DNA of 60,574 nt from Patescibacteria group bacterium (GCA_003504275.1 DOAO01000006.1:1496-62069); one strand, 5' to 3'; counted from the stretch's first letter, positions 3,237 through 45,021 are shown. Numbers and translations are program-made. Notes: generated by a model not told the origin, from the sequence alone.

Positions 3237-4785
3237 AAAAACAATACTAATCACCGGTGGCGCCGGATTTATCGGTTCACATTTATGTAAAAAATACCTA
3301 GACGAAGGACACAATGTTATTTGTGTTGATAATTTACAGACAACGATAGATCCTAAAAATATTAAGGACTTTTTTGATAATGAAAATTTTACTTTTATAA
3401 AACACGACATAATTAAACCGATAAAATTTAATCAAAAAATAGATTGGATATTTAACCTAGCTTGTTCTGGTTCTTATACTGTTTATCAATATGATCCAGT
3501 CCATACAGTAGAGACTAATACCGTTGGGGTTATAAATATGCTCGAATTAGCCAGGAATAATAAAGCCAGAATAATGCAGTTTTCAACTTCCGAAATATAC
3601 GGCGACCCCCTTGAGTCTCCCCAAAAAGAAACATACAAAGGAAACGTTAATACTCTCGGTCCTCGTGCTTGTTATGATGAGGGAAAAAGATGTGCTGAAA
3701 CTTTGTTTATGGATTATTACAGGGAATTCGATTTAGATATTAAGATAATAAGAATATTCAATACTTATGGTCCAAATATGGACATGAATGACGGACGAGC
3801 TGTAAGTAACTTCGTCTCTAATGCCCTGGCGGGTAAAGATCTTGCTATCTATGGTGATGGTACTTATACAAGAAGTTTTCAATACATAGATGATCTTGTT
3901 TCGGGAATAGATAAAATGATGGTAAAAGATGGTTTTATCGGCCCTGTTAATTTGGGTAATCCGGGAGAGGTTACAATGAAAGATATCGCGGGGATTATAA
4001 TAAAAAAAATCGGCTCTAATTCTAAAATTATTTTTGAAAGGGGTGTTTCAGATGATCCGAAGAGAAGGTGTCCCGATATTTCTTTGGCAAACAAAGAGCT
4101 TGATTGGGAACCAAAAATTTCGTTAAGCGAGGGTCTTGATAAAACCATAGAGTATTTTAGGGGTGTAGCAAGACCGGAAAATAAAATAGTTGTTTTTGCT
4201 AATACTTTTTATCCCGATTGTGGCCCAGCTGAGGACTCTCTGCTTTCTTTGGCCAGAGAAATGAAAGATACTGAATTTCATGTAATTACTACGAGGTTTA
4301 AGAAAGACAGAAAAAATTTCGAAAGTATGGGCAATGTTTCCATTTATAGAATTGGTTTCGGTTTTAAATTAGATAAATATCTTCTTCCTGTTTTGGGTGC
4401 AATAAAGGCTTATTATCTTGATAAGAAATATGATTTTAAATTTGCTTGGTCTGTTATGGCAAGTTATTCTGGTTTGGCGGTGCTTTTTACTAAAATGCTG
4501 ATTGGTAACAAGATAAATTTCTTAATATCTCTAGAACCAAAAGAGACTGAAAATGTAAACATTATTAAGAGAACTGTATTCAAACCACTATTAAGGGCAA
4601 TATTAAAAAATGCGGAGTCTGTTCACATCTTGGATAAGGATGAGGAAAAATATTTTAAAAAAATAGATTCTAGCATTAATATATCACATCGTTCTGCTGA
4701 TACGGGAACTTTTGTAAAACAGTTAAGAAGTGCTCATTCCGACATATTGAACAAAAAGCAGAAAAAACTTTCAAGACCAAAATAA
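3223..4785 (+). CDS. UDP-glucuronate decarboxylase (UDP-xylose synthase)-like SDR fused to a GT4 N-terminal-like domain
   Basis: ITGGAGFIGSHL, STSEIYGDP, GPRACYDEGKRCAET, RIFNTYGP, DDPKRRCPDI. The added C-terminal part (from about residue 320; VVFANTFYP...HVITTRF...IYRIGFG) resembles the N-terminus of the next GT4. Confidence 0.85.
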   Translation: MEKNKKTILITGGAGFIGSHLCKKYLDEGHNVICVDNLQTTIDPKNIKDFFDNENFTFIKHDIIKPIKFNQKIDWIFNLACSGSYTVYQYDPVHTVETNTVGVINMLELARNNKARIMQFSTSEIYGDPLESPQKETYKGNVNTLGPRACYDEGKRCAETLFMDYYREFDLDIKIIRIFNTYGPNMDMNDGRAVSNFVSNALAGKDLAIYGDGTYTRSFQYIDDLVSGIDKMMVKDGFIGPVNLGNPGEVTMKDIAGIIIKKIGSNSKIIFERGVSDDPKRRCPDISLANKELDWEPKISLSEGLDKTIEYFRGVARPENKIVVFANTFYPDCGPAEDSLLSLAREMKDTEFHVITTRFKKDRKNFESMGNVSIYRIGFGFKLDKYLLPVLGAIKAYYLDKKYDFKFAWSVMASYSGLAVLFTKMLIGNKINFLISLEPKETENVNIIKRTVFKPLLRAILKNAESVHILDKDEEKYFKKIDSSINISHRSADTGTFVKQLRSAHSDILNKKQKKLSRPK

Positions 4786-9345: not shown

Positions 9346-9735
9346 ACGACCCGCCAAAATGTGAAAACATTTTGGCGGTTTGTCGTTTCGCGAGGGTGAG
9401 AGATTTGAAGGCCACAGTCGGGCCCCTTGCTGAAAGCAAGGGAGACGAGGCGGGGTCGCGACCTTTTGCGAAGCAAAAGAGTTGTGACCAAATCTCTCCT
9501 TACGACCCGCCAAAATGTGAAAACATTTTGGCGGTTTGTCGTTTCGCGAGGGTGAGAGATTTGAAGGCCACAGTCCGTCTACAGGTGTCGCCTATATCTC
9601 GGCGACCGGTAACCCTTGTTGAAAACAAGGGAGAAGAGGCGGGGTTGCACAAAATTTTCAAAGAAAATTTATGTGTGACCAAATCTCTCCTTATGACCCA
9701 CCCAGACGCGTAAGCGTCTGGGTGGTTTGTCGTTT
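9346..9735 (+). repeat. tRNA-anchored antisense/hairpin cassette array (two full units plus a terminal hairpin)
   Basis: Units start at 9346, 9502 and 9693. 9392-9409 is the reverse complement of tRNA positions 9323-9340. GTGACC+AAATCTCTC occurs at 9484 and 9675. Confidence 0.85.
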
Positions 9736-44399: not shown

Positions 44400-44526
44400 A
44401 TACTAAAATAAAAAAACAGCATCCACTCGGATGCTGTTTTTGTTTATCTTTGAAATAAATTTTTTAAAACATGCGGTCAATAGAAAGGGTAGTGATATTT
44501 TGTCTATAAAATATTATTTTACATAC

Positions 44527-44548
44527 CATCTACGCCATGGCGTAGATG
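44527..44548. repeat. 22-bp perfect palindrome
   Basis: CATCTACGCCATGGCGTAGATG. Confidence 0.9.
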
Positions 44549-44574
44549 AGGGAAAGGTGTATAATACAAAACAA

Positions 44575-44970
44575 ATGTCCCAACAAAGAAAAATCTATTA
44601 TAAAGGCGTTAAGGTTAATTCGTTTGGTGTGCCCTTTTTAAATCCAAATGATGAAATAAAAGATAAAAAACATTTTCAGAATAAAGCCCATTATCATGCT
44701 TCTTTTATATCTTCGTTTAAATATGATTCCCCAAAGAACTTAATCGTTATGTACGATATTCCACATGAGAAGAAAAGGGAGCGTGATTGGTTTCGTCGGC
44801 ATTTAAAGAAATTTGATTATATAATGATTCAAAAAAGTGTTTGGGTTGGCCCTTCCCCATTACCCATAAGCTTTCTCGAATATGTGAAATCAATTGGTCT
44901 GAAAGATCAGCTTAAAGTTTTTAAACTCGCAAAACCATACACAGGGAAGGATAATGATTTATATCTATAA
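44575..44970 (+). CDS. Solitary Cas2-like / PaaX C-terminal-like protein
   Basis: LIVMYDIP..K..ERDWFR..L..F....IQKSVWV. No cas genes or array nearby. Start set at MSQQRK, 9 nt after TATAAT. Confidence 0.75.
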   Translation: MSQQRKIYYKGVKVNSFGVPFLNPNDEIKDKKHFQNKAHYHASFISSFKYDSPKNLIVMYDIPHEKKRERDWFRRHLKKFDYIMIQKSVWVGPSPLPISFLEYVKSIGLKDQLKVFKLAKPYTGKDNDLYL

Positions 44971-44987
44971 CACAGACTCCAGAAAAT

Positions 44988-45021
44988 TAACTCAATCTAC
45001 GCCATGGCGTAGATTGAGTTA
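44988..45021. repeat. 34-bp perfect palindrome
   Basis: TAACTCAATCTACGCCATGGCGTAGATTGAGTTA. The 20-bp core is identical to that of 44527-44548. Confidence 0.9.

Follow-up and report, generated by a model that had tools for sequence, protein, structure and literature searches.

A putative autoregulating Cas2-fold protein encoded in a relocatable, palindrome-bracketed module of Patescibacteria

Proteins such as Tus (TerB), RTP and ParB (parS) recognize a short site that occurs a few times per genome, and they regulate their own genes through a copy in the promoter. Sequence-specific recognition of palindromes is, to our knowledge, not a property of Cas2, and we know of no transposition chemistry for the Cas2 fold; PaaX, a repressor with a central Cas2-like domain, is likewise not known to us to read DNA through that domain. 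In the REP/RAYT systems, a gene that is mostly single-copy and passed on largely by vertical descent has its cognate palindromic repeat on its flanks, and more repeats are dispersed (PMC3116915, PMC5581495). Here, we analyzed a stretch of 60,574 nucleotides from a groundwater Patescibacteria group bacterium (GCA_003504275.1 DOAO01000006.1:1496-62069, hereafter the window), in which a lone Cas2-like gene, which we call the Cas2L gene, lies between rpmA and rplI and is bracketed by the 20-bp palindrome ATCTACGCCATGGCGTAGAT. Our analysis suggests that Cas2L is probably a sequence-specific Cas2-fold DNA-binding protein that represses its own promoter, and that the gene and its palindromes form a module belonging to a large Patescibacteria family.

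The Cas2L gene (44575..44970, plus strand) encodes a 131-aa PaaX_M/Cas2-fold protein. The 20-mer ATCTACGCCATGGCGTAGAT has exactly two copies in the window, at 44528-44547 and 44995-45014, with no further match in the window at three or fewer mismatches, and its chance expectation was 0 (100 shuffles of the window). The upstream copy is the core of a perfect 22-bp palindrome (44527..44548, no strand assigned; dyad between 44537 and 44538), and the downstream copy that of a perfect 34-bp palindrome (44988..45021, no strand assigned; dyad between 45004 and 45005), so that the two dyads are 467 bp apart. The edge of the upstream palindrome, our proposed operator, is 26 nt from the ATG (44575), and its dyad lies 37 nt 5' of the ATG and 22 nt 5' of the sequence-predicted −10 hexamer TATAAT (44560..44565, plus strand). 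Since the gap from TATAAT to the ATG is only 9 nt and a Shine-Dalgarno sequence is absent, a near-leaderless mRNA is predicted for the gene. A consensus scan found no TTGACA-like −35 hexamer for this promoter. The downstream palindrome starts 17 nt past the stop codon, which ends at 44970. Thus, the palindrome pair around a lone 131-aa Cas2-like gene described in the original prediction was confirmed, both by these coordinates and by the domain matches given below.

Homologues of the window protein number more than 1,890, at 57-72% identity, in Paceibacterota and relatives; the genomes carrying Cas2L are labelled Paceibacterota, Nomurabacteria or Saccharibacteria. In the first three homologue contexts (NUDIX/polA, and rpsG/fusA twice), one palindrome lay about 25 nt 5' of the ATG and another soon after the stop codon, with the same or closely related cores; counting the window, both copies were present in 4/4 loci. 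We then used an architecture test on 80 loci retrieved by protein similarity alone, in which the dyad score is the number of pairs out of 13. An upstream dyad with at least 10/13 pairs was present in 77/81 homologue loci vs 4% of control windows, and was positioned 34-38 nt before the ATG. A downstream site with at least 10/13 pairs was present in 62/84 homologue loci, at -14 to +54 relative to the stop codon, and in one clade it was embedded in the last codons (...SAMA*). Further, a −10 box was found +22 to +27 from the dyad in 22/23 cassette-upstream sites, compared with 16/66 solitary intergenic sites and a background of 9.5%; the homologue cassettes have 6-9 nt between the −10 box and the ATG and no Shine-Dalgarno sequence. 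Across the family, therefore, the dyad is located at about −35 of a predicted near-leaderless promoter, and nearly all loci have a palindromic site at a fixed place over the core promoter of their own gene, the −10 box starting 22-24 nt from the dyad. This geometry implies that Cas2L represses its own gene: because the upstream dyad lies over the promoter, bound Cas2L should shut that promoter off. The fixed distance of the dyad from both the −10 box and the ATG is also what would be expected from the original suggestion that the upstream copy is an operator at −35.

At least 10 core variants were found in the family, including CGCCATGGCG, CGCTATAGCG, TTCGCC.., ACACC.., CTCCACC.. and ATGGCCC... 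In most loci the upstream and downstream copies carry the identical variant, and one clade pairs a symmetric upstream site with a conserved asymmetric downstream variant, TTTACGCTATCGCGCATAT. These palindrome variants co-vary with residues of the protein, in line with the earlier proposal that the protein acts on its own flanks, and the co-variation strongly implies that Cas2L binds its palindrome. K67 accompanied C at +4 in 67/67 loci, while R67 accompanied T or G at +4 in 7/7 loci; R67 has four or more separate origins, one of them in L147 (site ATCTCCACCATGGTGGAGAT), which is sister to the window protein. H64 accompanied a CATG centre in 34/47 loci and K87 did so in 47/47; E or D64 accompanied a TATA centre in 22/25 loci and R87 did so in 20/25. 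Additionally, R or Y in an N-terminal column corresponded to G or C at +8. The homologues thus have palindrome pairs of their own, a point raised for checking by the original prediction, and this extends to two tandem paralogues of one locus, L021 (minus strand, 128-517 and 1620-1994, 1.1 kb apart), which carry different pairs and obey the H/D64 rule: H64 goes with a CATG-centre palindrome and D64 with a TATA-centre one, and the downstream site lies in the last codons of both.

We searched the protein for domains. The best Pfam match was PaaX_M (PF20803; 49.3 bits, cut-off 24, 5e-13) at residues 57-126. CRISPR_Cas2 (PF09827; 30.4 bits, cut-off 23.8, 4e-7) matched residues 56-92 only, TIGR01573 cas2 matched with 29.1 bits (cut-off 24.5), and the PADLOC Cas2 model matched as well; a match to DUF2515 was sub-threshold (15.3 bits vs cut-off 24.3). 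No Pfam match above cut-off fell outside residues 56-126, with no winged helix and no PaaX_C, which agrees with the earlier statement that no helix-turn-helix (HTH) is evident; nor did Pfam find a HUH/Y1 (IS200/IS605-type) or other transposase domain. The N-terminal extension of 55 residues carries a conserved YKG motif, YKGxxVNxFGxP, which is invariant in the homologue alignment, and has no HTH. In the AlphaFold2 (AF2) model (predicted local distance difference test [pLDDT] score 78, predicted template modeling [pTM] score 0.57), residues 54-122 form a beta-alpha-beta-beta-alpha-beta core, preceded by a beta-hairpin and a low-confidence helix. The best PDB folds for the model were Cas2, which gave the top matches (Foldseek E about 0.03, TM about 0.3-0.5), and VapD, both weak. 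D61 is invariant and aligns with the first-strand (catalytic) Asp of Cas2, Y9, Y60 and Y103 are invariant as well, and IQKSVW of Cas2L aligns with IQRSAF/VY of Cas2. Residues 64 and 67 come just after the invariant strand-1 YD and residue 87 is in the beta2-beta3 turn; according to the fold topology, these three residues would lie on one edge of the sheet.

Taking into account the model and the co-variation, we propose that Cas2L retains the Cas2/PaaX_M ferredoxin-like fold, and that its conserved N-terminal arm (YKG...NSFG.P) replaces the winged helix of PaaX-like relatives. The protein would bind a palindrome of ~20-28 bp, presumably as a dimer on the dyad, as the co-variation suggests, with residues 64, 67 and 87 reading the central bases and the N-terminal region reading the outer bases. 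The upstream copy would be centred ~35 nt before the transcript start, at a promoter with a good −10 and no −35 hexamer. In the wider family found by profile search, most proteins are ~160 aa long, with the Cas2-like domain alone matching, from near residue 70; the 125-131-aa Cas2L family is a tight branch within this larger set. The three longer relatives scanned with Pfam (e.g. L122) gave weak to moderate winged-helix matches before PaaX_M. Two longer relatives, L007 and L046 (182-184 aa, weak winged-helix matches plus PaaX_M), have palindromes too, the upstream one just 5' of a TATAAT. In L046 (3500-3550 / 4120-4150) the gene is bracketed by its own perfect palindrome CCGCGATCGCGG, with centre GCGATCGC; in L007 (5540-5610) the upstream palindrome CTCTGCTATAGCAGAG, with centre GCTATAGC, is perfect and the downstream match is partial only. 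These palindromes fit a Cas2-like domain that reads the centre and an N-terminal module that reads the outer bases.

The domain matches could also be taken to mean that Cas2L is left over from a CRISPR-Cas adaptation module, or that it is the VapD-like toxin in a toxin-antitoxin system. The Cas2 models of Pfam, NCBIfam and PADLOC all match, NCBI names homologues 'CRISPR-associated endonuclease Cas2' (or 'PaaX'), and VapD structures are among the weak fold matches. However, the Cas2 match is limited to residues 56-92 and is outscored by PaaX_M. The 60-kb window contains no CRISPR-like tandem array, and none of its 60 open reading frames (ORFs) matches a Cas1 model, the only cas-like matches among them being Cas2L itself and weak generic helicase/polymerase matches; on this point the original prediction was right. 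Members of the family, moreover, show tight conservation and always stand alone, each under a promoter and between palindromes of its own, and the unit contains no partner ORF: among ORFs of 40 aa or longer, only an antisense one of 48 aa (44747-44893) fits entirely into the space between the palindromes. No conserved partner gene was seen at the homologue loci, where the neighbors are housekeeping genes. We therefore regard a relic or toxin as the most improbable of the explanations considered, and the earlier idea of an addiction element, which lacks a partner gene, was not supported.

To place the unit in its genomic context, we located relatives via L9 and used four of them, 73-85% identical to the window in L9+L27. 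All four keep the gene order ctpA-rplI/rpmA-orf-orf-pth-S26-hisS, and their rpmA-rplI spacers are 36, 39, 109 and 252 nt long, compared with 644 nt in the window. None of these four spacers contains a Cas2L cassette or the palindrome. Each contains one bidirectional terminator, and the window terminator after rpmA (44412..44441, no strand assigned; A-tract/stem/T-tract, bidirectional-type) corresponds to this shared rpmA/rplI terminator. Two of the cassette-free relatives (L205 and L208) are nearer to the window than to the other two (L206 and L207), so that the simplest history places the insertion on the lineage leading to the window. Where cassettes from other contexts are compared with the window unit, nucleotide homology extends from 44527/8 to 45014/5 only; likewise, L201 (rpsG/fusA context) and L180/L170 (another context) share 88% identity from -51 to +426 and are unrelated outside. 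With empty spacers in the relatives and homology ending at the palindromes, the 495-bp unit is a discrete relocated module, and comparison of the loci demonstrates its relocation at the sequence level. Both the minimal palindrome-gene-palindrome unit and the empty rpmA-rplI sites envisaged by the original prediction were thus found. Since it carries along its own promoter, operator and end, the module can relocate intact.

Context clusters on the protein tree, and no shuffle does as well, so that inheritance appears mostly vertical; even then, explaining the rpsG-fusA context on this tree takes 8 changes or more. From one related genome to the next, the DNA adjoining the cassettes is hypervariable. 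The size of the rpsG-fusA gap goes from an empty 197 bp (L009) up to 2.1 kb with unrelated small ORFs, and the gap behaves as a variable slot, seen in L003, L004, L009, L029, L065 and some 15 other loci: about 19 loci hold a Cas2L cassette there, with or without non-homologous small ORFs, and two (L029 and L065) hold a solitary palindrome and unrelated ORFs. Two metagenome contigs from one sample, L170 and L180, have common outer flanks and differ by 4 extra genes (1.9 kb) directly upstream of the cassette and by the ORFs directly downstream of it, with no palindrome at the outer junctions. The cassette flanks look like hot spots of gene gain and loss. Carriage by phages or plasmids was rejected, as no relatives of Cas2L were found in IMG/VR (viral), INPHARED (phage) or PLSDB (plasmid). 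Of the hallmarks of an insertion sequence, the unit has presence/absence polymorphism and bounding terminal repeats; it lacks multiple copies (there is usually one cassette per contig), a target-site duplication and a known transposase. No direct repeat or target-site duplication is visible abutting the window palindromes.

We also scanned species-representative genomes for the exact 20-mer pattern. The scan gave at least 119 stretches, at least 116 of them labelled Patescibacteria-type. The counts of sites given from here on are those among the matches listed. The 129 sites divide into 36 on the flanks of a Cas2L gene and 93 elsewhere, although 15 of these 93 are near a tile edge, which leaves their adjacency to Cas2L uncertain. 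The non-flanking sites comprise 66 intergenic ones and 27 inside ORFs. The solitary sites lack the cassette promoter geometry, and their neighbors are unrelated housekeeping genes. A regulon was considered and rejected: the 117 genes adjoining solitary sites belong to more than 130 Pfam families, none occurring more than twice. Solitary and cassette sites are nevertheless related, since in 9/11 assemblies having both, the solitary variant is that of the resident cassette. Assemblies with more than one locus showed 2-6 exact sites among the matches listed. The palindrome is therefore not private to Cas2L flanks; solitary copies exist in related genomes, with none in the window. The original prediction was to fall if the palindrome proved a genome-wide repeat unlinked to the gene family. 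Dispersed it is, but unlinked it is not, because solitary copies usually carry the variant of the resident cassette.

Some intragenic copies occupy homologous positions, namely in DHFR (3 genomes; L011, L071, L097), in ComFC, a ComFC-type phosphoribosyltransferase (4; L030, L045, L113, L043), in TruB (2; L100, L092) and in UvrC (2; L101, L111). The palindrome there is usually translated as (N/Y)LRHGVD, and in UvrC it is read in two frames (IRHGVY vs STPWRR). Homologous positions together with two UvrC frames point either to a constraint at the DNA level or to targeted insertion into permissive loops. About half of the sites extend as perfect palindromes of 26-52 bp, whose arms vary from copy to copy, and arm complementarity exceeds background to about 19 nt from the dyad. 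There is no excess of G:T mismatches in the arms, and selection on the arms as RNA hairpins was rejected on this ground.

Could the palindromes be everyday hairpins (for instance terminators or RNA-stability elements) that have nothing specifically to do with the protein? Read on the minus strand, the downstream copy in the window resembles a terminator, with its 15-bp stem, an ATTTTCT tail and a predicted folding energy of -27 to -30 kcal/mol; besides being a second cognate site, it has the look of a terminator hairpin for the convergent rplI. A recurrent form, AAAACCAC-core-GTGGTTTT, resembles a bidirectional terminator, a T-run stands on one side of about 40% of solitary intergenic sites vs 19% in the background, and convergent gene pairs are modestly enriched among the flanks (30% vs 18%). 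Against this, the upstream copy lies outside the transcript of its own gene and at a fixed distance from the promoter, the variants co-vary with protein residues, and the conserved asymmetric variant would weaken a hairpin. Most sites have no T-run, G:T mismatches are not preferentially tolerated, and no Rfam family matches the palindromes; a role as terminators only was rejected. We consider hairpins unrelated to the protein very unlikely.

Alternatively, the main job of Cas2L might be architectural and genome-wide, a few sites on the chromosome serving as roadblocks, insulators, or replication or segregation landmarks on the model of Tus/Ter, ParB/parS, Noc/NBS or MatP/matS, while the copies at its own gene set the dose. 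The tus gene, for instance, is autoregulated through the adjacent TerB site. Such a role would suit the 93 solitary exact sites beside unrelated genes, the usual identity of the solitary variant with that of the resident cassette, and the strong conservation of the protein across three group labels; intragenic copies kept at homologous positions in different frames also point to a DNA-level constraint. On the other hand, the 60-kb window has no solitary copy, the palindromic sites have no polarity, unlike Ter sites, and ascertainment was biased toward exact 20-mers. Two-sided bracketing and relocation as a unit would be left unexplained. We think an architectural main role doubtful, and place it below both enzymatic readings that follow.

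Relocation and the dispersed copies bring in the possibility that Cas2L works without Cas1 as a nickase, nuclease or recombinase of the Cas2 fold and cuts its palindrome at the dyad or close to it. Such an enzyme would move the site-gene-site cassette and seed or maintain the solitary palindromes, with snap-back repair keeping the arms complementary, in the manner of REP/RAYT or IS200/IS605 on another fold; by binding at the left end it would still control its own expression, as many insertion sequences do. In favor of this are the invariant D61, aligned with the Cas2 catalytic Asp, and the three invariant tyrosines. The same spacer without a cassette in the nearest relatives, cassette homology that stops between contexts at the outer palindrome edges, the changes of the rpsG-fusA context and the hypervariable adjoining DNA fit as well, as do the solitary copies, including the in-frame ones in DHFR, ComFC, TruB and UvrC, and arms that are perfect yet copy-specific with no excess of G:T mismatches. 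RAYTs, too, occur in single copy, are inherited vertically and have their cognate REPs on both sides (PMC5581495, PMC3116915). However, there is usually one cassette per contig, with few exact sites per genome among the matches listed rather than hundreds, and the strong clustering of context on the protein tree means that moves are rare. The window has no visible target-site duplication, and no relatives were found in viral contigs or in phage or plasmid records. The empty sites of the relatives have no solitary palindrome, so a pre-existing site is not needed for integration. The arms of each copy pair with themselves and not with those of the other copy, which argues against a simple crossover at the dyad; for the same reasons, a dyad crossover between a circle and a solitary site was judged unlikely. 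Further, the conserved asymmetric downstream variant fits duplex recognition better than hairpin chemistry. On balance, an enzyme of this kind seems unlikely to us, though it is the foremost of the alternatives. A more specific form of it has a stand-alone Cas2L read the palindrome with the loop beside the metal-binding Asp and nick or recombine it, as a REP/RAYT-like and largely domesticated mobile system of CPR bacteria that would move the promoter-to-terminator cassette, plant solitary palindromes in and between housekeeping genes, and leave arms made by snap-back repair. We rate this form as less likely again.

An autoregulating palindrome binder is therefore the reading we prefer, and in it the solitary palindromes would be further targets of Cas2L. 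Its weakest step is the downstream copy, which might be an auxiliary operator, a roadblock, or a hairpin that insulates the module; in the window, it would replace the terminator of the convergent rplI. Several points weigh against this reading. Every step of it comes from sequence. The AF2 model is of moderate confidence, with residues 28-35 below 50. The co-variation counts are partly inflated by common ancestry, and independent origins were checked for the K67/R67 switch only. The invariance of D61, and of several acidic and several basic residues besides, has no obvious use in a pure repressor. Autoregulation does not explain the near-universal downstream copy, nor the solitary copies, which lie inside genes or beside unrelated housekeeping genes with no common regulon, nor arms that are copy-specific yet complementary so far from the dyad.

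The left neighbor of the unit is rpmA (ribosomal protein L27; 44127..44399, plus strand), and the right neighbor is rplI (ribosomal protein L9; 45044..45487, minus strand), convergent with the cassette gene. The remainder of the 60-kb window is ordinary Parcubacteria housekeeping DNA. An alternative 179-aa ORF (44431-44970) begins within the terminator of rpmA and continues across the upstream palindrome; the homologue alignment favors the 131-aa start, and a preference of gene callers for the longer ORF, if there is one, could explain why the 131-aa form has no separate entry in the protein collection used. In the public data, the Logan contigs of the source-sample run X1 end or begin within the 34-bp palindrome (44988-45021), and a separate 34-nt contig spans it. 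De Bruijn assemblies are interrupted by any perfect palindrome that exceeds k, so we take this break as an assembler effect, and where contigs of public data end at such palindromes, the cause is not necessarily biological; the syntenic flanks and an equal depth to the left and right support the contiguity of the window across this palindrome. The metatranscriptome runs of the source study gave no matches, other metatranscriptome runs gave fragments of a 90-95% identical relative only, and other DNA runs contained the same organism only, at low depth. Elsewhere in the window, at 9346-9383 and 9502-9539, we noted identical 38-nt hairpin-forming inverted repeats (ACGACCCGCCAAAATGT / ACATTTTGGCGGTTTGT), 156 nt apart and unrelated to the Cas2L palindrome.

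Thousands of these genes bear the database labels 'CRISPR-associated endonuclease Cas2' or 'PaaX', and neither fits. Cas2L is among the most conserved small proteins that we saw here, in organisms with very few recognizable regulators. If our reading is right, a Cas2-type fold recognizes DNA sequence by itself, through a code that is simple and apparently re-programmable, K/R67 tracking +4 and H/E64 tracking the centre. The module also illustrates well how nature can combine promoter, proposed operator, gene and terminator in one portable unit, and together with its solitary sites, some of them in essential genes, it may offer a handle on genome organization or DNA mobility in uncultivated ultra-small bacteria. 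Were the enzymatic reading true instead, Cas2L would be the first case of a Cas2 fold that processes DNA sequence-specifically outside CRISPR, and a possible window on the origin of the partnership between Cas2 and palindromic repeats.

Compared with known systems, Cas2L resembles Cas2 (PF09827, TIGR01573; PDB 5G4D, 6JHZ, 3EXC) in the ferredoxin-like beta-alpha-beta-beta-alpha-beta core and the first-strand YD motif, and differs in the partial and weak match, the 55-residue N-terminal extension, and the lack of cas1 or an array in the window. As with Tus/TerB, RTP and ParB/parS, its site recurs between and inside genes, with one at its own promoter; unlike them, Cas2L has an unrelated fold and a perfect palindrome with copy-specific arms, which stands at both gene ends, and the module relocates. 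A limited literature search found no paper linking Cas2-like proteins with Patescibacteria, or Cas2 with CPR and a palindrome, or bearing the core sequence. With the PaaX repressors (E. coli PaaX, PDB 8A39; Pfam PaaX, PaaX_M PF20803, PaaX_C), Cas2L shares the central Cas2-like domain that is its best Pfam match, and each probably binds palindromic operators and thereby regulates its own gene. In contrast to PaaX, Cas2L has no winged helix or PaaX_C, its gene is not beside paa genes, the residues that correlate with specificity are within the Cas2-like domain, and its sites bracket the gene on two sides and are also dispersed as solitary copies. Like REP/RAYT, the Cas2L gene is mostly single-copy and flanked by its cognate palindrome, copies of which are dispersed, and the repeat sequence tracks the protein clade. 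It differs in having a Cas2/PaaX_M fold rather than the HUH/Y1 fold of IS200/IS605, few exact palindrome copies per genome among the matches listed where REPs have hundreds, a fixed promoter geometry of the upstream copy, and copies also inside genes. Taken together, and judged by analogy, the closest systems are PaaX-type regulators by homology and REP/RAYT by architecture (PMC3116915, PMC5581495).

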